A DNA stretch of 64,000 nucleotides from a bacterium (GCA_028824015.1 JAPPFC010000017.1:141945-205944), one strand, 5' to 3'; shown: positions 2,646 through 56,390, numbered from the stretch's first letter. Notes: generated by a model not told the origin, from the letters alone. Numbers and translations: made by a program.

Positions 2646-2886
2646 TCCCCCACCGAGGATATTGCCGATCGACGGCGTGCAGGCAAATCACCCGATGGCG
2701 GCCCCAGGAACGCCGCACCCCGGTCGGAGGCTCCCTGTGGCTGCGCCGGTCCCCCTTCCTGGCACAGGACCATTGGCACGTTGGAACCGCTGATATATGA
2801 TTGGTGCTGTCACGTTAGGTCAATCGGTGGAGATTCAGGTGAATACCGGAACGGGCGGACGGGGCCGGCCCCGTCTCGGCGGTTCG

Positions 2887-5307
2887 ATGGTGGTTGCAGG
2901 GGTTCTGGGCTTGGTCCTGGGGGTTTTCGGTCCGGTGGGAGCGGATGGAAGGGGCGCATTCGGAGATGACGACGGTGACCCGCACGAACCGGCCATCGAT
3001 GCCCTGGCCGACGTGGGGGTCTTCACCGGTACCGAGTGTGGGGAGAACGCCTTCTGTCCCTCCGAGGAACTCTCCCGCCGGGTGATGGCGGTCTGGCTGG
3101 TCCGCCTCCTGGAGGATGACCCGCCCGCGCCGGCGGCGTCCCCAGGGTTTGAGGATGTGGGACCATCCCAGTGGTGGGCGCCATACGTCGACCGGCTGGC
3201 TGGATTGGGGATAACCCGGGGGTGTGCAACCGATCCGGACCGTTTCTGCCCCGAGGCTCCGGTCACACGGGGGCAGATGGCGACCATGATGACCCGCGCC
3301 CTCGATCTGCCACCCGCGGGAGAGGCGGGCTACGTGGACACGGCAGGGAGCATCCACGCCGCCAGCATCGACTCGTTGGCGGCCATCAGCGCCACGGTCG
3401 GATGCGCCGCCCATCCGGACCGGTTCTGTCCGGATGCGCCCTTGACCCGTGGAGAGATGGCCACTGTCCTGGCCCGGTTCTTCGGTTTGATCCCATTTCC
3501 GGAGTTCGACCCGCTGCCGGATCCGGATCCGCACCGGATCGCATTCACCAGGTATGACACCCGAGGCCAGGATGACGACATCGTGGTGATGGATTCGGAT
3601 GGCGGCAACTCTCGGGTGCTGGTCCACGGGGAGAACCCGATGTGGTCGCCGGACGGCTCCCGCATCGTGTATAACAGCAAGGGCCGGGTCTTCCTGATAG
3701 GCGCCGACGGGAGTAATCGCCGGCACCTCGGGAACGGGCGGTTGCCCTCGTGGTCGCCAGACGGGACCCGGGTGGCATTTGTGTCGAGGGGAGACCTCTT
3801 CGTGGTGAACTCGGACGGGACCGGCTTGTTGCAACTCTCCGTGGGTCGGTCCATCGACGACTTCCTGGCATGGTCCCCGGACGGGGAGCGAATCGCATAC
3901 CACAGTCACCCTCAGGGCAGTGTCAACGCCGAGATCTACCTGGTGAGTGCCGATGGTACGGATGACCGGCAGTTGACCGACAACGAATACAGTGATTGGG
4001 CCCTGGCCTGGTCTCCCGACGGCGCCACGATCGCCTTCTACAGCCACGGAGACATCTTCCTGATGGATGCGGACGGCGGGAACCAGCGACTGCTGATACA
4101 CGGCGGGTTCCCGGCCTGGTCGCCCGACGGCGAACGGATTGCGTTCTCCCTGCACGGAGAGGTATTCGTGGTGAATGCCGACGGCACCAACCAGCAGCAG
4201 GTCACTTACGACGCCATCTTTGACCAGGATCCCGTCTGGTCGCCTGATGGCGAACACCTCGCCTTTCAGGGTATCCGGGGCGGTGACAACGAGATATACG
4301 TGGTGGCTCTCGAGAGCGGGGAACGCCGACGGCTCACCGACAATCACATAGAGGAAAGCGGCCAGGTCTGGTCCCCCGACGGATCCACCATCGCCTTCAC
4401 CAGGTCCTATCGGAGTGAGGTCTTCGTTGTGTTTGACGACGGCACAGACCAGTGGCAACTCACCTACAACAATGACAATGACACCGATCCGGTGTGGTCT
4501 CCCAATGGGCAGTGGATCGCCTATGTGGGAGCCAGGGGCGGGGATAGCGAGATCTTCGCGGTGGATCCGGTTAGTCGCAGCCACTACCAGGTAACCGACA
4601 GTGACTACTTCGTTTCGAGTCCGACCTGGTCCCCGGACAGCTCCAGAATCGCCTTTACGAGTCGGGGAAGGGGTTTCGACTCGGAGATCTTTGTGGTGGG
4701 TGATGAGGGTCGGTACGTCAGACAGGTCACCGACGACCTGAGTTCGGTGGCGGCTATGACATGGTCAATGGACGGCAGTGAGGTCCTCTTTGCCAATGCA
4801 CGAGGTCGGCATCCGGGATTGTTCGTGGTCAGTGAAGATGGGGCGAACCTCCGAAAGGTGGCGGACGACAATTACGGTTCCCCACGGGGGATGGTTTGGT
4901 CGCCGGACCGCACCCGCATCGCGTTCGCAGGGTTCCGGGGCGGTGACTACGAGATCTTCGTCATGGATGCCGACGGCGCCAACCTACAACAACTCACTGA
5001 TAACGATGCGGACGACACCGAGCCGGCTTGGTCACCCGATGGGTCCCGGCTCGCATTTGTGAGCGACCGGGACGGTGATGAGGAGATCTTCGTTGTCTAC
5101 CCCGACGGGAGCTACCGTCGCCAACTCACCTACAACGAAGCATCAGACCACAGTCCGGCGTGGTCGCCGGATGGGTTCTACATCGCCTTTGTCGGAGATG
5201 CGGATGGCGACGACGAGATCTATGTGGTGGATGCGGACAGAGGCTATCTGGCGCAACTCACTCACAACCACTACGCCGACCGTTCTCCCACCTGGATGCC
5301 CAAGTAG
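2887..5307 (+). CDS. exported surface protein: three N-terminal SLH-like repeats followed by ~17 tandem PD40/TolB-type beta-propeller repeats
   Basis: Internal ATG at 2887 precedes a hydrophobic signal-like segment. Three ~55-aa repeats each carry C-x5-6-FCP...TRG(E/Q)MA. These are followed by many repeats of WSPDG-x-x-IAF spaced ~45 aa apart. Confidence 0.75.
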   Translation: MVVAGVLGLVLGVFGPVGADGRGAFGDDDGDPHEPAIDALADVGVFTGTECGENAFCPSEELSRRVMAVWLVRLLEDDPPAPAASPGFEDVGPSQWWAPYVDRLAGLGITRGCATDPDRFCPEAPVTRGQMATMMTRALDLPPAGEAGYVDTAGSIHAASIDSLAAISATVGCAAHPDRFCPDAPLTRGEMATVLARFFGLIPFPEFDPLPDPDPHRIAFTRYDTRGQDDDIVVMDSDGGNSRVLVHGENPMWSPDGSRIVYNSKGRVFLIGADGSNRRHLGNGRLPSWSPDGTRVAFVSRGDLFVVNSDGTGLLQLSVGRSIDDFLAWSPDGERIAYHSHPQGSVNAEIYLVSADGTDDRQLTDNEYSDWALAWSPDGATIAFYSHGDIFLMDADGGNQRLLIHGGFPAWSPDGERIAFSLHGEVFVVNADGTNQQQVTYDAIFDQDPVWSPDGEHLAFQGIRGGDNEIYVVALESGERRRLTDNHIEESGQVWSPDGSTIAFTRSYRSEVFVVFDDGTDQWQLTYNNDNDTDPVWSPNGQWIAYVGARGGDSEIFAVDPVSRSHYQVTDSDYFVSSPTWSPDSSRIAFTSRGRGFDSEIFVVGDEGRYVRQVTDDLSSVAAMTWSMDGSEVLFANARGRHPGLFVVSEDGANLRKVADDNYGSPRGMVWSPDRTRIAFAGFRGGDYEIFVMDADGANLQQLTDNDADDTEPAWSPDGSRLAFVSDRDGDEEIFVVYPDGSYRRQLTYNEASDHSPAWSPDGFYIAFVGDADGDDEIYVVDADRGYLAQLTHNHYADRSPTWMPK

Positions 5308-9793: not shown

Positions 9794-10198
9794 TCAGTCG
9801 GTGGGTCTCAACTCCAATGAACAGGAGTTGATGCAATAACGCATGCCGTCGGGTCCGGGGCCATCCGGGAAGACATGTCCCAGGTGACCTCCGCAAGCCT
9901 TGCAGAGGACCTCGGTGCGGACCATGCCATAGGAGTGGTCGACCCGGGTCTCGATCCGGTCGGGATCCATTGCCTGGTAGAAGGAGGGCCAGCCGGTGCC
10001 GGAGTCGAACTTGGTGTCGGAGTCGAACAACTCCATTCCGCACCCCGCACAGGAGTAGGTTCCCGAGTCCTTGGTATTCCAGTACGTTCCGGTGAACGGG
10101 CGCTCGGTGGCCCCCTCCCGCAGCACGCGGTATTGCATCGGGTCCAGGCGTTCCCGCCACTCGGCTTCGGTTTGGGGGAGGGTGGTTTCTTCGCTCAT
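9794..10198 (-). CDS. msrB: peptide-methionine (R)-S-oxide reductase MsrB
   Basis: 134 aa; paired CxxC zinc motifs and the GWPSF / HLGHVF SelR signature. Confidence 0.85.
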   Translation of the reverse strand: MSEETTLPQTEAEWRERLDPMQYRVLREGATERPFTGTYWNTKDSGTYSCAGCGMELFDSDTKFDSGTGWPSFYQAMDPDRIETRVDHSYGMVRTEVLCKACGGHLGHVFPDGPGPDGMRYCINSCSLELRPTD

Positions 10199-10408
10199 AT
10201 CCGGGACTCTACAAGGGTCAGGAGCCGGTTGTTCTACTCGTTGCGTCCTTCCGTACTTTGGGCTACATCCATTAGCGGATGAGGAAGGGCGCGAATGCTC
10301 TTCATCAGTGGGACCTCTTGTACGTCGACATTCGTGCGCTTGAGTCCGGCTCGCTCCATTTTGATGCCCACCTTGCAGATATCGTGACCTATATTTATCA
10401 TCTCCTCA

Positions 10409-12259
10409 ATGGCTGTTGACGTCCAACAAATCACTGGTATTGCTCGCTCTGTGAGTCAGCTTCTCTCCAACAGCCGGTACGGTCTCGACTTCTACCAAAG
10501 GGAATACACATGGAGGGAGACCGAGGTCGGCGAACTCGTGGATGACCTGGTCGGGCGCTTCCTCGACGAGTTCGACCCAAGTCATGAGCCGACGCAGGTA
10601 CTCTCGTATCGGCCCTATTTCCTCGGCCCGATTGTGACAGCCCAGCGCGACGGCGTTCGGTATCTAGTAGACGGACAGCAGCGAATCACAACACTCACCC
10701 TGCTGCTGATCCATCTCCGTCACGCCTTGACTCTAGAACACCCAAAAGACAGCGGTGCGCTCAACTCTCTCATTTTTTCTTGGCAGATAGACAAAGAAAC
10801 GTTCAATCTTGATGTTGATGAGCGGCATGCGTGTATGTCGGCGATCCTGGAGGGCATTGAATTCGATTCCCATGAACAATCGGAGTCCGTCCGGAATATC
10901 TGGGACAGGTACAAGACCATCGAAGAGCGATTTCCTCATCAGGATCTAAAGGAAAAAGCACTTCCCTTCTTCACCAATTGGCTTCAGCACAGGGTGATTC
11001 TGGTTGATATCGGCGCGGTGGACCAGGATATGGCTCTTGAGATATTTGAGACTATGAACGACCGGGGGCTACGCCTCACCAACACTGACATGTTGAAGAG
11101 CTACCTGCTGGCGCGGGTCCGAGACGAGGACCAGATTCGGAAGTTGAACGACCTCTGGCGTCGCAGAACCACTGAGTTGGCCGACGCTGAAAAAGATGCC
11201 CCCGCCGAGTTTATGAAGGCTTGGCTTCGCGGTAACTATGCGGAGTCCCAGCGTCAGCGCAAGGCGAAAGCGGCGCCCGGCGACTTTGACATCATCGGGA
11301 CGGCCTTCCACAAATGGGTCCGGGACCATGCTGAGATGATCGGGCTCAAACGGACGCCAGACTTCAGGCGGTTTGTCGAATACGAATTCGATGGGCTCAG
11401 CCGCCGCTATCTACAGCTTCTCGATGCTTGTCATGACCTCAAGCCGGGACTAGAAGCTGTTTTCTACAATGCCGGAAACGGGTACACCCTGCAGCTCCCG
11501 GTGATTCTGGCAGCTATTACACCAGAGGACAACGACGCCGCCTTTCGAGAGAAGGCGGCTTTGGTCGCAGGAGCGCTCGACATCTTCGTGGCTCGTCGGA
11601 TGGTGAATTACCGCTATTTCGGATATAGCACGGTCGTGTACACGATGTTCAACCTCATGAAAGACATACGAAATCGTGCCACCGATGTGGTGAGGGAGAT
11701 TCTCACTGGGTGGCTAGCGGGTGAAAAGGAGCGGGTAGAGGGAATCCGGCATCTTCGACTCACTCAACGCAACCGTCGACACATCCACTATCTGCTGGCG
11801 CGGGTGACATCCTGGCTTGACAGCGAAATGGGGAAGGGTATACCGACCTTTCCCGACTACGTGAACCGGCATAGCAAGGATCCCTACGAGGTCGAGCACA
11901 TCTGGGCCGATCACTTCGAGTGGCACGAATGCGAATTCGACAACACCTATGAGTTCGGCGAACACCGCAACAAGATTGGGGACCTCCTGCTACTCCCCAG
12001 AAGCTTTAACCGCAGCTATGGCGATATGCCATATTGCCAGAAGGTTGATCACTATAACTCCCAGAACCCACTGGCTCGGTCGCTGCACCCATTGGCATAC
12101 CAAAACAATCCCAACTTCCTTGGGCTCATCAACACCTACAATCTCCCCTTCAAGCCATATCCATGTGCCTTCACCAGGACCGACATTGATGAGCGCCAAG
12201 AGTTGTACCGGAATCTGGCTGAGGTGATATGGGATCCTGCGCGCCTCGGCCTTGGCTAA
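10409..12259 (+). CDS. DUF262 (ParB-like NTPase) + DUF1524 (HNH-like nuclease) protein; GmrSD/type IV restriction-like defence nuclease
   Basis: 616 aa; the N-terminal YQREYTW and DGQQRITTL motifs are DUF262 hallmarks and the C-terminal EVEHIW...H...N region is DUF1524-like. Local GC is clearly lower than the flanks. Confidence 0.75.
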   Translation: MAVDVQQITGIARSVSQLLSNSRYGLDFYQREYTWRETEVGELVDDLVGRFLDEFDPSHEPTQVLSYRPYFLGPIVTAQRDGVRYLVDGQQRITTLTLLLIHLRHALTLEHPKDSGALNSLIFSWQIDKETFNLDVDERHACMSAILEGIEFDSHEQSESVRNIWDRYKTIEERFPHQDLKEKALPFFTNWLQHRVILVDIGAVDQDMALEIFETMNDRGLRLTNTDMLKSYLLARVRDEDQIRKLNDLWRRRTTELADAEKDAPAEFMKAWLRGNYAESQRQRKAKAAPGDFDIIGTAFHKWVRDHAEMIGLKRTPDFRRFVEYEFDGLSRRYLQLLDACHDLKPGLEAVFYNAGNGYTLQLPVILAAITPEDNDAAFREKAALVAGALDIFVARRMVNYRYFGYSTVVYTMFNLMKDIRNRATDVVREILTGWLAGEKERVEGIRHLRLTQRNRRHIHYLLARVTSWLDSEMGKGIPTFPDYVNRHSKDPYEVEHIWADHFEWHECEFDNTYEFGEHRNKIGDLLLLPRSFNRSYGDMPYCQKVDHYNSQNPLARSLHPLAYQNNPNFLGLINTYNLPFKPYPCAFTRTDIDERQELYRNLAEVIWDPARLGLG

Positions 12260-12290
12260 CACACCTTAACTTGGGTAGCTGACTTTTCGA

Positions 12291-12740
12291 TCATTTGCTG
12301 AGCGATTCAAGGACCCGGACCAGGTGATCCAGCAGGGCTCTCTGGCTGGAGGCCACACTGACTCTGGCTTCGGGGACCGAGAACCACTGCGCACGGTCTA
12401 TTTCGGGAAACTCCCGGGTTATTCCCGAGCGGGGCGGCCACTCCATGGAGAACAACCCGGGCTGGAGGGCGTCGGGGTCGAAGTCAGCTTCCACCGCCCA
12501 GATGCTCATGATCTGGTTGGCGGCTTTGACCTCGGGCAGTGGCAGCCACGGGTCCGGTGGCGCCTTCCAACCCGTCTCTTCCTCGAATTCACGGGTGGCG
12601 GTCTCCAGGAGGGTTTCGCCTTGGTGGCCTCTTCCCTTGAAGACGGTCCAGGCTCCCTGGTCGCGCCTGGCCCAGAACGGGCCACCATAGTGGCCGAGCA
12701 GCACTTCCACGGCGCCGGAGGAGTTCCGCCGGTAGATCAA
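12291..12740 (-). CDS. NUDIX hydrolase
   Basis: 149 aa; Nudix box GETLLETATREFEEETGW. Confidence 0.8.
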   Translation of the reverse strand: MIYRRNSSGAVEVLLGHYGGPFWARRDQGAWTVFKGRGHQGETLLETATREFEEETGWKAPPDPWLPLPEVKAANQIMSIWAVEADFDPDALQPGLFSMEWPPRSGITREFPEIDRAQWFSVPEARVSVASSQRALLDHLVRVLESLSK

Positions 12741-12794
12741 TAGTCCGGCACTGATTCGAGGAGCTATGTCGATCTTCTCTCTTCTGGTCCGCTC

Positions 12795-13307
12795 TCAGGT
12801 CGACAACGCCGCCAGGATCTCCGGAAAAGCGGCTTCGGCAAGAGACTGCATCTCCTGGTCGCTGCGGTCCTGGATGGGATGGGACGTCAGCACCCTGCGG
12901 GGATGCAGACCCAGGGCCTCTCCCTGGGCGTCGGCTGCCTGCGCGAAGCGTTCTGAGGCCACGAAGACTCCCGGAACGCCGCGGTCTTCCAGATCAACGA
13001 GGTCGTGCACACTGCACGACGCGCACGAGCCTCAGTCGGCCAATGCCTCGACCACCGCGGTGCACTCGGCGGCGATCTGCTGGCGCAAATCCAATGGGGC
13101 CGGTTTGGAGAAGGTGGGCTTGCGGTAGTGCTTCACCGACACCCCCCTCTCAGAGAACAGTTCATCCAGCCTCTTGATGAACACGTCGCCTCTCGGCTTG
13201 GATATGTCCAGCAAGGCCACTGTCCCCTCTCCCAGGTCCGGAAGTCGGGGACTGAGTTGTCGCTTCTGGACGGTTCGTTCGCTGGTCGGGTCCAACAATG
13301 CGGTCAT
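12795..13307 (-). CDS. putative selenoprotein with U-G-S-C redox motif (in-frame TGA at 13032..13034 read as Sec)
   Basis: ORFs 13032..13307 and 12795..13010 are in the same frame (both ends are 2 mod 3), separated only by a TGA. Read-through gives ...EALAD-U-GSCASCSVHDL... A 7-bp stem-loop lies 12 nt downstream of the TGA. Confidence 0.5.
13002..13020 (-). promoter_or_regulatory. candidate bacterial SECIS stem-loop (GUCGUGC-AGUGU-GCACGAC) directing Sec insertion at the upstream UGA
   Basis: Perfect 7-bp inverted repeat gtcgtgc/gcacgac with a 5-nt GU-containing apical loop. It starts 12 nt 3-prime of the TGA on the coding strand, the geometry expected for a bacterial SECIS element. Confidence 0.4.
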
Positions 13308-13317
13308 ATGATCCCCC

Positions 13318-14781
13318 TTAGCTGTCGATGGCGACGGTGGTCATCTGCGAACTGGCTGCGCCGCCGATCCAACCGGAGATTATCGCCGAGAACATCCCGG
13401 CGTCTCCTCCGGCGTGGACGAACCACAGGCCTTCGGTGGTGTATTTCGCGAAGTCTTTCCCTCTGGTGGCCACATGTGGCGGCATGCCCTCGGCTACTCC
13501 GCCGGCTCCCGCCGCCAGTTCGGCTCCCGGGAGGGTGAGCAGTGAATGAATCTCCCGGCGCAGCCGGTTCTTGGACCAGCCCGCCTCTCGGAAGATCCGA
13601 GCGTGTTCGGGAGAGACCACCACTATCGCATCGGTCATCCCTGCTAGCTTGGGATGGCCGACCATGCGCAACTGCAGTGCGAAAGTCCTGGCCAGAGATT
13701 CGGGGTTGCGGGACTTCTGGTCCACGATCTCGATCGGCCCGTGGCCGGCGAACAGGGTCACCGCCGAATCGTCGGGAGAGAATCCCCGCTCCACGGAAAG
13801 GGACTCCCAGGGTGACGCCTCCTCGTCTTCGGGGAAGCAGAAGGAGAGCTTTCCCGGGCTTCCCAACGCGGCGCGGTCCACACCGCCCGGTCGGGAACCA
13901 CCCACATTCCTGACCACCAGATTGAGGGCTCGTCCGATGGTCAGGTTGGCCCGGTTGCCTGGCCCCAGGGCATTGATGCCGGAGTTCATCCCTATCCGGC
14001 GGCGGATCGGTCCGTTCACCACCATCACCGGGCCGGTGAAGTAGGTGGTGGCCGAGATGCCGTGGATGTTGAAACGGCTGGTGGCCGCCGCTTTCACCGC
14101 CGCCAGCACCACCGGCAGGTATTCGGGCAGACAGCCTGCCATCACCGCGTTGATCGCCACCTTCTCGACGGTGCACTCGACCAGGTCGGGAGGGAGTACG
14201 CACACCACCTCCCCCGGGAGCCGGGAGGTGCCCTCCAGCATTCTGGCCACCCGTTCCTCGGTCGGGGGCGTCACGGGGAGGCCGTCCGTCCACCCGCGGG
14301 CGAAGGCCGCTTCCACAGGATCTTCGGAGCTTCCCAACTCCACCCGTCGCGAGGAGAGCCGGTGGGGGGAGTGGCGCCGCATCAGACGCTCGTGAACCTC
14401 GGGGAGCATGGTGTCGGAGCCGCAGCCCGGCCGTTGAGCCGGGAGTTTCGCTCCCAGACCCTGAATCCGGGTCACCCGCTCCCAGCCGGTCCTCAGCCAA
14501 CCCGGCTCCTCATCCACGACTTCCCCGTCTTCTATCCGGTAGATGGTGGGGGTGGTCTCGGTCTGAAGTCTCCAGGAGACATCCAGTTCCCGGTCGTGAA
14601 GAACCTCGAACCCGGACGGGAAGTCGGCCCGATCCTGGGAGACCACCGCCAGGAGCTGTTCGCCCGCGGCGAGTTCGGCCAGGACCGGCACCACCATGTG
14701 GCAGGTCTCGCAATCGTCCTTCACCACCGCCAGGAGCCCGCTGGTGATGGGAAGGGACATGGTGGGCTGATCGCTCATCAA
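13318..14781 (-). CDS. uncharacterised protein with N-terminal thioredoxin-like CxxC (CETC) domain
   Basis: 487 aa; N-terminal VVKDDCETCHMVVPVL resembles a thioredoxin-fold CxxC; the remainder has no motif I can name; sits immediately upstream of the selenoprotein candidate. Confidence 0.5.
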   Translation of the reverse strand: MMSDQPTMSLPITSGLLAVVKDDCETCHMVVPVLAELAAGEQLLAVVSQDRADFPSGFEVLHDRELDVSWRLQTETTPTIYRIEDGEVVDEEPGWLRTGWERVTRIQGLGAKLPAQRPGCGSDTMLPEVHERLMRRHSPHRLSSRRVELGSSEDPVEAAFARGWTDGLPVTPPTEERVARMLEGTSRLPGEVVCVLPPDLVECTVEKVAINAVMAGCLPEYLPVVLAAVKAAATSRFNIHGISATTYFTGPVMVVNGPIRRRIGMNSGINALGPGNRANLTIGRALNLVVRNVGGSRPGGVDRAALGSPGKLSFCFPEDEEASPWESLSVERGFSPDDSAVTLFAGHGPIEIVDQKSRNPESLARTFALQLRMVGHPKLAGMTDAIVVVSPEHARIFREAGWSKNRLRREIHSLLTLPGAELAAGAGGVAEGMPPHVATRGKDFAKYTTEGLWFVHAGGDAGMFSAIISGWIGGAASSQMTTVAIDS

Positions 14782-14824
14782 GATGACTCTACAAACGCCG
14801 CCGCTGTGACGAGGAGCGAAGGTG

Positions 14825-15397
14825 TTAGCTGATCGCTCCCTCGACTCGGAGGAGGCGTCGCTTTCGCTCGGCGCCCCCTAATCCGTAGTGGCCGATCCGG
14901 CCGTTTGAGAGCACCACCCGGTGACAGGGGATCACCAGGGGGACCGGGTTCCGGGCCATGGTCTGTCCCACCGCCCGGGCGGCGCCGGGACGACCGGTGC
15001 GGCCGGCCAGCCATCCGTAGGAACGGGTCTCCCCGCGGGGGATGGCCGCGGTCTCCTCCAGGACCTGCCGCTGGAAAGCGGTGACGGAGCGGAAGTCCAC
15101 CGGGAGACTCCCCGGGGTGCCTTCGGCCAGGGCCTGCAGGATCAGCCTCTCCCAGTCACGGGGCGGCCGAGCCTCCAGGAGCTGTCTCCGGAAACGCTCC
15201 GCAAAGCGATCCTCGAATCCGTCGGTGAAGAGGTCCACCGCCGATACGCCCAGGGGGTTGAACGCCACCACCACCGATCCCAGGGGCGATTCGAACACCG
15301 AGAAGCCGTCGGAAAGGCCGGTTCCCAGCGCTACTCCGCCCGACACGCTGCCGGGCGCTGCGACCGTGAGTCGTTCCAGTTCTCTCTCCAAGGTCAT
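14825..15397 (-). CDS. ogt: methylated-DNA--protein-cysteine S-methyltransferase
   Basis: 190 aa; C-terminal active-site PCHRVV and HTH region typical of Ogt/MGMT. Confidence 0.8.
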   Translation of the reverse strand: MTLERELERLTVAAPGSVSGGVALGTGLSDGFSVFESPLGSVVVAFNPLGVSAVDLFTDGFEDRFAERFRRQLLEARPPRDWERLILQALAEGTPGSLPVDFRSVTAFQRQVLEETAAIPRGETRSYGWLAGRTGRPGAARAVGQTMARNPVPLVIPCHRVVLSNGRIGHYGLGGAERKRRLLRVEGAIS

Positions 15398-15930
15398 CCG
15401 CCTACCTCCTTGTTCGTCTCTTCTTCGATGGCCGACCGCAGTCGGGCCAGTCCCCGCCGGACGTCACTGCGGACAGTACTGGCCGGCCTGTCGGTCGCCT
15501 CCGATATCTCCCGGTAGGAGAGTCCCGCCACATGGCGCAGGATCACCGCCCGGCGCTGGGCCGGGGGCAGGAGCGCCCACCGGCGACGCCAGGCTCGGGA
15601 GTCGGGTGGCTCCGACTGGGTGTAGCCGACGTCCTCCAGTCTGACCGGGACGGGACGCCGAGCCGAGGCCCGGACGTCGTTCCGGAACAGGTTGAGGGCG
15701 ATGGTCCATATCCACCCTCGTAAACGCATATCGCGGATCCGCTCGGCCGGATAGGACTGGAGCGCCAGATAAGCCCGGATGAAAGTCTCCTGGGTGAGGT
15801 CTTCGGCCCGATGATGATCTCCCGCCAGTTGCCGGAGGCCGCTGAACACGCCGTTCTGCAGCCGGGCCACCAATTGCGGGAAGGACTCATCCAAGTCGGA
15901 TGCCAGTTCCGTCGCCAAGTTGTCGGCCAT
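15394..15930 (-). CDS. ECF-subfamily RNA polymerase sigma-70 factor
   Basis: 178 aa; region 2 (DLTQETFIRAY) and region 4 HTH (LSYREISEATDRPASTVRSDVRRGLARLR); stop overlaps the ogt start (ATGA). Confidence 0.8.
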   Translation of the reverse strand: MADNLATELASDLDESFPQLVARLQNGVFSGLRQLAGDHHRAEDLTQETFIRAYLALQSYPAERIRDMRLRGWIWTIALNLFRNDVRASARRPVPVRLEDVGYTQSEPPDSRAWRRRWALLPPAQRRAVILRHVAGLSYREISEATDRPASTVRSDVRRGLARLRSAIEEETNKEVGG

Positions 15931-16052
15931 CTACTTAAATAACACCTGTCAATCCCGCCGCGTTGCACTTGTGGACAATAAACCGTGCCTGTGTGGCGGG
16001 GGAGGTGGAAATGGATGACGGATCACGTTGACGGATAAGCTACCGTGACTCG

Positions 16053-17063
16053 GTGATGGCCGCAGAAGTCACCACGGTGGAGATCGCCGGCGAGAATGTA
16101 CGGATCTCCAGCCCCTCCCGGGTGGTCTTTCCCCAGCAGGGATGGACCAAGCTCGACGTCGTCAAGCATTTCGCAGTGTGCGCGGAAGGAGCCCTTCGGG
16201 GGGTCGCCAACCGACCGACCATGCTCAAGCGCTACATGAAAGGGGTGGATCAGCCTCCCATCTATCAGAAGCGGGCTCAGAGAAGAACCCCTTTCAAGAC
16301 CGTTGACATCCGGTTCCCCTCCCAGCGGCCGGGCGTCATGAACGTGCCAACCACCGAGGCCGACATCGTCCGTTTTGCTCAGCTGGGGTGTCTGGACCTT
16401 CACCCCTGGCCGGTCCGGGCCGACGACATCGACCATCCCGACGAGTTGAGATTCGACTTCGATCCGACTCCGGGATTCGGGTTCGGGGACGTGAAGGAGG
16501 CGGCCTTGGCAGCGCATGATCTGCTGGAGGAAGTGGGCCTGAGGGGATGGCCCAAGACTTCGGGGAGTCGGGGTATCCACGTCTATGTGCGGATAGAACG
16601 TCAATATGACTTCCACCACACCCGCCGGGCGGTCCTGGCCTTCGCCAGAGAGTTGGAGAGGCGTCTCCCCGGTCTGGTCACAACCAGGTGGTGGAAGGAG
16701 GAACGCAGGGGCATCTTCTTGGACTACAACCAGAACGCCCGGGACAAGACCGTTTCGTCCGCCTACGGGGTGCGTCCCACGGGTTATGTCTCTGCTCCTC
16801 TAACTTGGGCCGAGTTGCCCGACGTGGAGATCGAAGACTTCCCGATGGACCGCTTCGCCGACCGCTACCGGGCGGTGGGTGACCTGTCGGAGGGGATAGA
16901 TCAGTCAGCCGGCGAGATCCACACTCTCCTGGAGTGGGTGGTTCGTGACGAGGAGGAGTACGGCCTGGGAGACGCGCCCTGGCCTCCCCACTATCCCAAA
17001 CAGCCCGGAGAACCTCCCCGGGTCCAACCCTCCCGCCAACGGCGGGCCGACCACGAATACTGA
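16053..17063 (+). CDS. stand-alone LigD polymerase (primase-polymerase, NHEJ) domain protein
   Basis: 336 aa; SGSRGIHVYV motif and the overall pattern of the LigD Pol (AEP superfamily) domain; no ligase or nuclease domain attached. Confidence 0.8.
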   Translation: MMAAEVTTVEIAGENVRISSPSRVVFPQQGWTKLDVVKHFAVCAEGALRGVANRPTMLKRYMKGVDQPPIYQKRAQRRTPFKTVDIRFPSQRPGVMNVPTTEADIVRFAQLGCLDLHPWPVRADDIDHPDELRFDFDPTPGFGFGDVKEAALAAHDLLEEVGLRGWPKTSGSRGIHVYVRIERQYDFHHTRRAVLAFARELERRLPGLVTTRWWKEERRGIFLDYNQNARDKTVSSAYGVRPTGYVSAPLTWAELPDVEIEDFPMDRFADRYRAVGDLSEGIDQSAGEIHTLLEWVVRDEEEYGLGDAPWPPHYPKQPGEPPRVQPSRQRRADHEY

Positions 17064-21442: not shown

Positions 21443-21588
21443 AGAAATCCTCCAACGGAAGGGGTCAGGAATGGCTACATAGGGTACTACGCAAAACGGT
21501 TATCGAACCATCGAGATCGGTGGGACCGCTGGAAGATGCCGGTGGGAAACCCGAACGCAGGTCTCGCAAAGAACAGAACCGAGAAGAG

Positions 21589-30036: not shown

Positions 30037-31242
30037 GTGCTTATGCGCTCCTATTTGAATTCACATCCATGGATCACCTTCGAAGCCACAGACATCAACT
30101 CCCTCCATCCCAGGATCTGGATGCTCTTGGGCGAGGCGCGGTCCAAGTGCGAGCATCTTGCGGGAACTCCGCTCCAACCTGAGGTAGCAAAACACTTCTA
30201 CGAGGTAGCGCTGATCAAGGGGGCACAGGCGACCACGGCGATCGAGGGGAACACCCTCACCGAGGACCAGGTAGCCGGAATCCTGCGGGGGACCTTCCGC
30301 GCTCCCCCGTCTCGTGCATATCAGGAGCGGGAAGTCAAGAATGTGCTTGAGGCTCTGACCACTATCGCCCAACAGGTCGTGGACGGTGGTCTTCCCACCA
30401 TCACCAGCGAGTTGATCTGTGACTTCAACCGTCGGGTGTTGGAAGGCACTCAATACGAACCAGACGTTGTGCCCGGACGGATACGTGACTACCCGGTCGG
30501 CGTGCTGGATTACCGGGGCGCGCCGCCGGAGGACTGCCAGTACCTGGTCGACCGTCTGGCTGAATGGCTGGAGAGCGCCACATTCCGCTCAGAGGATGCT
30601 GAGATCCGATTTGCCCTGGCTGTTGCCTGCGCGGTCTACGCTCATCTTTACCTAGCGTGGCTGCACCCCTTTGGAGACGGAAACGGACGGACAGCCAGAC
30701 TTCTCGAGTTCTTGATCCTGGCAAGGTGCGGAATGCCGCTTCCGGTGGCTCATCTTCTATCGAACCACTACAACCTGACCCGAGACGAGTATTACCGTCA
30801 ACTGGCCGCAGCCAGCAGGACCCAGAAGACCCACGAATTCCTGGGCTATGCGATACAAGGACTGGTCGACGGCATTCGAGAACAAATCGAACAAGTGCTA
30901 CAGCAGCACTTCCGCGTGACCTGGCTCAACTTCGTGCATGAGACCATGAGGCAGTTCCCGTCGAGTCCGGCGCGAGACCGCCAAAGATCCCTGGTGCTCG
31001 CCATGCCTTCTGATGAGGAGATCCCCAAGAGGAACCTTCCCGAACTCACCCCGAAGCTTGCGCGTCTCTACGCCACGAAGGGACCCCGCACCTTGAGCCG
31101 CGACCTGAACAGGCTTCTGAGCGTCCAGTTGGTCGCCAAAGGACCCAAGGGATGGAGATCAAACGACAGAATTATCAGGGCCTTCCTGCCTCCGACGGCA
31201 GAATCCGTGACGGGGCTGGCGTTACCCGCTCCCATCTCCTGA
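30037..31242 (+). CDS. fic: Fic/Doc-family protein (class II, self-inhibited AMPylator-type)
   Basis: 401 aa; canonical FIC motif HPFGDGNGRTARL; an N-terminal inhibitory-helix-like TTAIEGN fits (S/T)xxxE(G/N). Confidence 0.8.
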   Translation: MLMRSYLNSHPWITFEATDINSLHPRIWMLLGEARSKCEHLAGTPLQPEVAKHFYEVALIKGAQATTAIEGNTLTEDQVAGILRGTFRAPPSRAYQEREVKNVLEALTTIAQQVVDGGLPTITSELICDFNRRVLEGTQYEPDVVPGRIRDYPVGVLDYRGAPPEDCQYLVDRLAEWLESATFRSEDAEIRFALAVACAVYAHLYLAWLHPFGDGNGRTARLLEFLILARCGMPLPVAHLLSNHYNLTRDEYYRQLAAASRTQKTHEFLGYAIQGLVDGIREQIEQVLQQHFRVTWLNFVHETMRQFPSSPARDRQRSLVLAMPSDEEIPKRNLPELTPKLARLYATKGPRTLSRDLNRLLSVQLVAKGPKGWRSNDRIIRAFLPPTAESVTGLALPAPIS

Positions 31243-55793: not shown

Positions 55794-56390
55794 ATGATTG
55801 ACTCTATGTCTGTATTGACTGCTACTCGACGCCACCAGCTACTTAGAATCTTGAAGGAGAAGGGTTATCGCAGGCTGCCGGAGCAGGTCAAGCTGGCATC
55901 CGGTGAGTGGTCATTCGATTTTATTGATGGTAAGAAGGCCCTTGCTAAGTGGAGCGATCTCCGAGTCGCATGCGAGGCCATTGTCGAAGAAGTTTCAGAG
56001 GCCGGCCATCAGTTCGACGCGGTCGGTGGCCTAACTTTGGGTGCTGATGCTCTTGCTGTGGGAGTTGCTGCCGTCAGTGACACCAAGTGGTTTTTTGTTC
56101 GCAAAGAGCCAAAGAAACGCGGCACGCGACGTTTGATAGAGGGAGCTTCCCTTGGCAAGAAAGACAGAGTTCTCTTGGTCGACGATGTGGTGACAACAGG
56201 AGGGTCGATTTTCAATGCTCTAAAGGCAATTGAAGAAACGGAGGCCAAAGTCGTTGCGGCAGTAACGCTCGTGGATCGGGGAGATTCAGCAGAGCCGCGG
56301 TTCAAAGAAAAGGGTATTGCATACTTTCCCATGGCGAACTACAAGGATCTGGAAATCGAACCGGTTCGTTCTAAACGAGTCATTCAGTGA
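55794..56390 (+). CDS. type I phosphoribosyltransferase, orotate-PRTase (PyrE)-like, in a low-GC insert
   Basis: 198 aa; PRPP-binding motif VLLVDDVVTTGGS and an upstream KKRG...IEG block as in OPRTases. The gene and the ~70 nt upstream are markedly AT-richer than the flanks. Confidence 0.75.
   Translation: MIDSMSVLTATRRHQLLRILKEKGYRRLPEQVKLASGEWSFDFIDGKKALAKWSDLRVACEAIVEEVSEAGHQFDAVGGLTLGADALAVGVAAVSDTKWFFVRKEPKKRGTRRLIEGASLGKKDRVLLVDDVVTTGGSIFNALKAIEETEAKVVAAVTLVDRGDSAEPRFKEKGIAYFPMANYKDLEIEPVRSKRVIQ

Follow-up and report, generated by a model that had tools for sequence, protein, structure and literature searches.

The DUF262 and DUF1524 domains of GmrSD-like enzymes are defined by QR, DGQQR and FxxxN motifs for the binding and hydrolysis of nucleoside triphosphates (NTPs) and by a His-Me motif, respectively (PMC12137116). 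Modified DNA is the target of GmrSD, BrxU, GrwAB and HEC-type proteins (bioRxiv 10.1101/2024.01.29.577857; PMC12137116), and SspE and DndI, which read phosphorothioate (PT) marks of the host, have their genes next to those of the mark-writing enzymes (PMC11662687). A further protein of this kind is encoded on a 64,000-nucleotide stretch of bacterial DNA (GCA_028824015.1, JAPPFC010000017.1:141945-205944), which as a whole is referred to as the window and from whose first letter all its positions are counted. The gene (10409..12259, + strand) specifies a 616-amino-acid (aa) protein composed of a DUF262 NTPase/sensor domain, an alpha-helical linker and a DUF1524 His-Me nuclease domain, and it lies between msrB and a NUDIX hydrolase gene. 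An earlier note, made from the sequence alone, had taken it for a recently acquired single-gene defense islet. As detailed below, the locus is an old variable defense slot with allele replacement and loss rather than the site of a fresh insertion, and its occupant in the window is probably a solitary, functional, type IV-like enzyme of the GmrSD family that has long resided there.

Domain architecture and motifs of the GmrSD-family protein

The two motifs from which the protein had been recognized, YQREYTW and DGQQRITTL, are indeed present in the 616-aa open reading frame (ORF) as parts of FYQREYTW (aa 28-35) and VDGQQRITTL (aa 87-96), and the proposed GmrSD/SspE/BrxU-like architecture stands, with both Pfam domains above their gathering cut-offs. 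The DUF262/GmrSD_N (ParB-like NTPase) domain (PF03235; aa 15-234, 10451..11110, +) scores 108.6 bits against a cut-off of 33.2 (E 5.9e-31) over the full profile (1-199), and the DUF1524/GmrSD_C His-Me finger nuclease domain (PF07510; aa 454-559, 11768..12085, +) scores 30.0 bits against 23 (E 5.4e-7). NCBIfam offers no model for the protein. Between the two domains, an all-alpha linker or middle region (aa 235-453, 11111..11767, +) is formed by helices H225-H448 of the AlphaFold2 model, with a predicted local distance difference test score (pLDDT) mostly above 85. The model as a whole, computed from an alignment of 54 homologs, reaches a mean pLDDT of 88.3 and a predicted template modeling score of 0.77, and places a mixed alpha/beta N-domain before the all-helical middle region. 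Around H497 and N534, the strands 493-497 and 526-530 and the helix 531-537 adopt a beta-beta-alpha arrangement.

The catalytic motifs are intact. Conservation was scored on the same alignment of 54 homologs (58-89% identity), in which Q30 and R31 of the QR motif (nt 10496-10501), the entire DGQQR motif (D88-R92, nt 10670-10684), F213 and N217 of the FxxxN motif (nt 11045-11059), E496 and H497 of the His-Me motif VEHIWA (nt 11894-11899) as well as N534 (nt 12008-12010) are invariant, and N521 is conserved in at least 90%. Mutating the equivalent residues abolishes defense in HEC-06 (bioRxiv 10.1101/2024.01.29.577857), DndI (PMC11662687) and GrwA (PMC12137116), and the equivalent motif residues of BrxU are likewise needed for defense.

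A Foldseek search of the PDB returned only three significant families (E 3e-11 to 2e-5), namely DndI (9jfl; E 3e-11, template modeling (TM) score 0.53), BrxU (7p9k; E 2e-8, TM-score about 0.28) and SspE (6jiv; E 3e-8, TM-score about 0.27). Of the PADLOC models, the best for the protein was HEC-06 (3.5e-35), followed by Orf5, a PADLOC name whose meaning a literature search did not resolve, SspE (2.6e-16, N-terminus) and mREase_IV (1.7e-7, aa 15-107). The protein is thus a clear member of the GmrSD superfamily and not an ortholog of any characterized member. Its nearest record is 98% identical (P0001, GCA_028820285.1; an exact-sequence look-up matched no contig). The surrounding branch is large, with 519 representative clusters (50% identity) at E <= 1e-30 and 2070 at E <= 1e-10; full-length relatives number thousands, some with the extra domain PF18755. 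Hence, a sizable and previously uncharacterized branch is added to the GmrSD-like defense nucleases. Plasmids from many phyla carry full-length homologs with 33-43% identity, and those of Deinococcus radiophilus and Ralstonia solanacearum, at about 40% identity, lie within type I restriction-modification (RM) operons. The latter fit the pattern of GmrSD-like proteins embedded in other defense systems described by Payne et al. (bioRxiv 10.1101/2024.01.29.577857), which supports a role in defense. Membership in the family and this defense role are regarded as close to certain.

Occupancy and history of the msrB-NUDIX slot

The variable segment (10199-12290) extends exactly from the start codon of msrB, which encodes peptide-methionine (R)-S-oxide reductase (9794..10198, -; Pfam SelR 7.1e-51, NCBIfam TIGR00357 MsrB 7.5e-53), to the stop codon of the NUDIX hydrolase gene (12291..12740, -; Pfam NUDIX 6.5e-11). 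Both flanks are conserved across all relatives, with aa identities of 79-99% for MsrB and 71-99% for the NUDIX protein, and a dnaK-grpE-dnaJ operon follows just past msrB. In the same orientation, the GmrSD gene occupies this slot in seven other lineages of the Acidimicrobiia, which gives eight loci together with the window. The encoded proteins share 98% (L001/L002), 88% (L003), 88-89% (L004), 71% (L085 and L092) and 70% (L088 and L093) aa identity with that of the window; two IS21 copies separate the gene from the NUDIX gene in L004, and in L093 a gene for an AAA_16 ATPase stands between msrB and the GmrSD gene.

For the close relatives, the gene shows the divergence of its surroundings. Between the window and L003 or L004, synonymous divergence (dS) of the GmrSD gene amounts to 0.66 and 0.48, respectively, compared with 0.12-0.78 for the flanking genes, and the ratio of nonsynonymous to synonymous divergence of the GmrSD gene is 0.10-0.13. 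These values indicate co-descent under purifying selection. Since the dS values are comparable to those of the flanks, the gene was already present in the common ancestor of these lineages.

A different picture emerges for L004 and L085. In a neighbor-joining tree of 10 concatenated flanking proteins (2499 columns), with the topology ((L003,((window,L001),(L004,L085))),L088) and L005-L007 outside, these two are sister taxa, yet their GmrSD genes are discordant: dS is 4.9, i.e. saturated, at 68% aa identity, against a flank dS of 0.16-0.41 at 94% aa identity. Along a sliding comparison of 200 bp, nucleotide identity between the two stays at 0.88-0.98 through dnaK and msrB, amounts to only 0.36 for the 5' intergenic stretch and 0.60-0.71 for the gene, and returns to 0.89-0.96 in the NUDIX gene; the breaks coincide sharply with the start of msrB and the stop of the NUDIX gene. 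Saturation of synonymous sites within an otherwise young segment indicates that in L085 the whole cassette including the 210-bp upstream region has been replaced by a diverged allele, most simply via recombination in the flanks. Fast evolution of the protein in situ was rejected as the cause of the 68-71% identical alleles, as synonymous sites are saturated in the gene and not in the flanks.

The edges of the segment agree with these boundaries. The 5' intergenic region (10199..10408, +; 210 bp) belongs to the variable cassette: its identity to the L085 and L088 alleles drops to 0.34-0.40 compared with 0.82-0.92 in msrB, and in relatives without the gene, about 20 bases next to msrB are the sole part conserved. 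The promoter is presumably located in this region, with a leader that would be short or absent; neither a sigma-70 consensus nor a terminator was recognized in the intergenic sequences of the locus. At the right edge, the convergent GmrSD and NUDIX genes leave 31 bp between their stop codons (12260..12290), a spacer whose length varies from -4 to 82 bp where the slot is occupied in other lineages. An antisense ORF of 66 aa (10234..10434) was rejected as a gene because the alleles differ there by indels. Rfam gave no family at the locus, its only match being a sub-threshold RAGATH-20 inside the ORF (29 bits; gathering score 101).

The earlier note had held that presence of the gene at this locus in all relatives would contradict a recent arrival. 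Such presence applies to the seven lineages but not to three further relatives. These were found by a genome scan seeded with a neighboring 487-aa protein and are metagenome-assembled genomes of Acidimicrobiia whose DnaK is 89-93% identical to that of the window; L005, L006 and L007 have the NUDIX and msrB neighbors and no GmrSD gene. Instead, L005 contains a 318-bp gap with a relic of roughly 65 codons of a pfkB sugar kinase gene (~15907-16093), L006 an intact gene for a PfkB-family sugar kinase (14175-15251, -), and L007 a 382-bp gap with an 85-aa AAA_16 relic (~15600-15850; 59% identity, E 5e-28 to the L093 gene). The AAA_16 gene of L093 (4761-5927, -; 388 aa, probable C-terminal DNA-binding region) was seen in this locus only. 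The L007 relic corresponds to its last 85 codons, and the alignment of L093 and L007 is continuous from msrB into the relic. As this remnant of a gene that adjoins GmrSD in L093 persists in L007, the comparison points to a secondary deletion of the GmrSD gene rather than a site that was never occupied. No GmrSD relic was detected in the gaps of L005-L007, no pfkB or AAA_16 relic in the window's slot, and no pfkB trace in any locus with the GmrSD gene. Alignment of the empty sites of L005 and L007 gave no exact insertion edges beyond the ~20 bases by msrB, the sequences being too diverged.

When L092 and L093 were added to a tree of five right-hand genes, both grouped with L007, L005 and L006, so that presence and absence of the gene are interleaved across the tree. 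In the tree of the protein family, the alleles resident in the slot (window group, P0006/P0008 and P0007/P0010) cluster together, and all five deep alleles share the slot. This fits an old acquisition at the slot followed by exchange within the clade. Elsewhere, a 69%-identical homolog (P0014) is found in a member of the Acidimicrobiaceae (L089) as a solitary gene in unrelated context. Conceivably, though as a tentative reading that is more doubtful than the one preferred here, the alleles of one type IV-like nuclease constitute a trans-species series of at least 4-5 deeply diverged forms (68-74% aa identity, saturated dS), each of which may recognize a different modification of phage DNA; frequency-dependent selection would keep these alleles, and recombination in the flanks would shuffle them between species. 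If this holds true, the persistently low content of guanine plus cytosine (GC) of the gene would stem from a composition common to the whole family or from ongoing exchange and would not point to a single foreign origin.

Further variation was observed in and next to the slot. In L004, the GmrSD-NUDIX interval (12087-16461) comprises two tandem IS21-type elements, each with an rve transposase and an IstB ATPase, plus a 162-aa ORF, and the GmrSD product is called 13 aa shorter. A second variable spot adjoins the first. Between the UGSC gene (see below) and the NUDIX gene, an approximately 600-aa vWA-domain lipoprotein-like protein is encoded in L005 (12659-14587), L007 (12852-14624) and L092 (8678-10363), with a fragment in L006 (11993-12823); a HAD hydrolase gene also lies in this interval in L005 and L006. 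The vWA gene is absent from the window, where the UGSC and NUDIX genes are 54 bp apart.

Proposed function, composition and alternative readings

A plausible mode of action starts from the ParB-like DUF262 domain, which would bind and hydrolyze NTP and serve as a sensor or regulator that gates the nuclease. Through the helical linker, it would be joined to the C-terminal DUF1524 His-Me (beta-beta-alpha-metal) nuclease, which may nick or cut DNA. The predicted target is invading phage or plasmid DNA with a modification absent from the host, in the manner of type IV restriction. With respect to its history, the gene has descended vertically in the window's sub-clade, while a deeply divergent allele was swapped into at least one close relative and the gene was lost in others.

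The single-gene arrangement given in the earlier note was borne out. Within 10 kb, the neighbors in all eight syntenic loci are housekeeping genes (dnaK-grpE-dnaJ, msrB, NUDIX, UGSC and similar), and neither sspABCD nor dndBCDE was found beside the gene in this range. In a PADLOC scan of the 49 ORFs of the 64-kb window (E <= 1e-5), no methyltransferase or Dnd/Ssp modification family is among the 25 of 36 matched families listed; besides the GmrSD gene's own matches, the matches listed contain only SoFic, PDC-S04 and PDC-S24. Because no DNA-modification gene is linked, a type IV-like mode is the most likely one. The solitary context, on which this part of the interpretation is based, slightly favors a specificity for modified DNA.

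Alternatively, the protein could be a PT-sensing effector of the DndI/SspE type that depends on dnd or ssp genes elsewhere in the genome and either attacks DNA without the host's PT marks, like DndI, or is activated by such marks, like SspE. In line with this idea, DndI is the best structural match (TM-score 0.53 compared with 0.27-0.28 for BrxU and SspE), the SspE models of PADLOC match the N-terminus, and Y29 aligns with Y25 of DndI, which senses PT (PMC11662687). However, the aromatic residue of the YQR motif is generic to DUF262, and the dnd or ssp genes that adjoin DndI and SspE are replaced here by housekeeping neighbors, with no such modification family in the listed PADLOC matches of the window. 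Moreover, DndI is toxic to PT-deficient cells (PMC11662687), which fits poorly with a single-gene cassette that hops between lineages; a swappable one-gene cassette is therefore more readily understood as type IV-like. Given that DndI remains the closest structure and that the search is confined to the window, a PT-sensing effector is retained as an unlikely, though not negligible, alternative.

Some of these observations, together with others, weigh against a solitary type IV-like enzyme of long residence in the slot. The check for dnd and ssp genes covers the 64-kb window and not the rest of the host genome, and the best structural match is a PT-sensing effector and not a type IV enzyme. Similarity to every characterized member is weak and mostly N-terminal (PDB phmmer E 1e-5 to 1e-7), and the HEC-06 models reach only aa 5-278 of 616. 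The gene and flank trees are simple neighbor-joining trees with long, poorly resolved deep branches, which leaves the number of gains and losses uncertain. On balance, a solitary type IV-like enzyme is still preferred.

A recent transfer of the gene as a single-gene defense islet from a lower-GC donor into the msrB/NUDIX gap, as put forward in the earlier note, was not sustained for the window's lineage and is improbable. The sharply bounded segment, the absence of the gene from L005, L006 and L007 and the documented cassette replacement in L085 could be taken in its favor, as could the composition. GC content is in fact non-uniform and, as had been noticed, lower than in the surroundings (54.6% vs 63.6% for the window, z = -3.4); the 15 lowest-GC stretches of 1851 bp in the window all overlap the GmrSD locus. 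At the three codon positions, GC is 0.61/0.37/0.66, against roughly 0.67/0.47/0.80 in neighboring genes. Yet about half of this deficit is due to the amino-acid composition of the protein, which is rich in K, N, Y, F and L and poor in G, A, P and V, as recoding with the codon preferences of the host still gives a GC of only 0.597, compared with a mean of 0.649 for host coding sequences. Synonymous codon choice, for which uniformity had likewise been at issue, is only mildly atypical (z = -1.3, rank 5 of 42 genes by per-codon likelihood); the genes that exceed it include those for a phosphoribosyltransferase, a UbiA protein and an unknown protein. Furthermore, every slot allele is low in GC whatever its age (0.51-0.56 vs 0.63-0.66 in the flanks). 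Low GC is thus a standing property of the gene and gives no date for its arrival, and for annotation the lesson is that acquisition cannot be dated from low GC alone. Recent transfer is also contradicted by the flank-like dS of the window's allele, which L003 and L004 share, by the occupation of one slot in seven other lineages and by the clustering of all five deep alleles in the family tree. Finally, the edges lack marks of integrative insertion: there are no bracketing repeats around 10199-12290 and no att-like direct repeats, no recombinase or integrase ORF lies inside the segment, and the only tRNA gene of the window is at 21588.

A housekeeping nuclease that acts on damaged or aberrantly modified host DNA without a role in defense would suit a gene under purifying selection that keeps its position throughout a clade of several species and is stably linked to a neighborhood rich in damage-repair and nucleotide-sanitizing genes (msrB, NUDIX, an Ogt/MGMT-like gene, a LigD primase-polymerase and a dCTP deaminase), but it is very improbable given that the gene is dispensable in three relatives, was swapped as an allele at saturated dS, has a 69%-identical homolog in unrelated context (L089) and distant ones in plasmid RM operons, and that every characterized relative is a defense protein.

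Beyond the GmrSD gene, two other regions of the window stand out in composition. In the phosphoribosyltransferase-domain gene at 55794-56390 (+), GC is lower (0.513) and synonymous codon usage far more atypical (z = -3.5) than in any other gene of the window; this gene ranks above the GmrSD gene as a candidate for recent foreign origin. At 30037-31242 (+), a Fic-domain protein is encoded that matches the PADLOC defense model SoFic (5e-50); it is located within a lower-GC stretch (~28.7-32.6 kb), and the genes around it have a GC of 0.59-0.61 and atypical codon usage.

Among the other neighbors, two small ORFs of the UGSC family (91 aa and 71 aa; 12795-13307, -) constitute one gene with an in-frame TGA, which is split in the same way in every relative. 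Since this TGA is followed by GSC (EALAD-TGA-GSCASC) and thereby completes a U-G-S-C motif, the product is very likely a selenocysteine-containing protein. Directly upstream, the 487-aa protein mentioned above (13318-14781, -) has no Pfam match and an N-terminal CxxC motif (DDCETCHM); relatives with 53-83% identity occur in many phyla, including Myxococcota and Proteobacteria. The UGSC gene follows the 487-aa gene in every tabulated locus (L001-L012 and L029; Acidimicrobiia, Acidobacteriota and Chloroflexota), and the two may represent a conserved two-gene module. Lastly, the gene at 2797-5307 (+) specifies a protein of 836 aa that combines an SLH domain with many PD40/beta-propeller repeats; L001/L002 share this gene, and L003, L004, L085 and L088 lack it between their HAD and FBPase genes.

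Comparison with described defense systems

Taken together, the gene matches the species group in age and is an ordinary member of a known family, and it opens no new mechanistic question. The type IV enzymes Eco94GmrSD and EcoCTGmrSD share its two-domain architecture, the QR, DGQQR and FxxxN motifs and the His-Me motif, and they are likewise single polypeptides of ~600 aa encoded by solitary genes without a cognate methyltransferase. Their sequence similarity to the window protein is, however, very low, and the known GmrSD substrate is glucosyl-hydroxymethylcytosine DNA. HEC-06, whose defense activity was validated by Payne et al. (bioRxiv 10.1101/2024.01.29.577857), is also a GmrSD-like single protein, in which DGQQR and the E-H pair are required for defense (EHICP, compared with EHIWA here), but the match does not extend over the full length: PDLC04155 and PDLC04157 cover profile positions 4-277 of about 560, and the C-terminal half of the window protein is not recognizably HEC-06. 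In addition, HEC-06 was found embedded in Hma systems, whereas the window gene stands among housekeeping genes.

Of the solved structures, DndI (596 aa; PDB 9jfl), the effector of the IscS-DndBCDE-DndI system, comes closest to the full-length protein; its DUF262 ATPase contains DGQQR and is combined with a DUF1524 HNH nickase. DndI differs in its low identity of 14-15%, in being encoded beside dndBCDE/dndFGH and in avoiding self-cleavage via the PT marks of the host. BrxU (7p9k) and SspE (6jiv) belong to the same family with significant Foldseek matches (E about 2e-8), but their TM-scores of only 0.27-0.28 imply a different arrangement of the domains, and the match of a profile to BrxU is marginal (E 0.0044). 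BrxU occurs within BREX and SspE together with sspABCD, in contrast to the solitary window gene.

At the level of the locus, the msrB/NUDIX slot provides a clean natural example of a single-gene, core-flanked defense slot that has seen loss, other occupants and a single, well-bounded replacement of an allele. This picture, including the insertion sequences, is tidy but as expected of defense loci. The hsd-mcr-mrr immigration control region of Escherichia coli and core defense hotspots are variable chromosomal defense slots flanked by core genes. The slot described here resembles them in its fixed position between core genes, in presence and absence of its content, in alternative occupants (pfkB, AAA_16 and IS21) and in allele replacement through homologous flanks, and differs from them in that it holds one gene in most lineages, with occupants that are mostly alleles of one family instead of an assortment of different systems.

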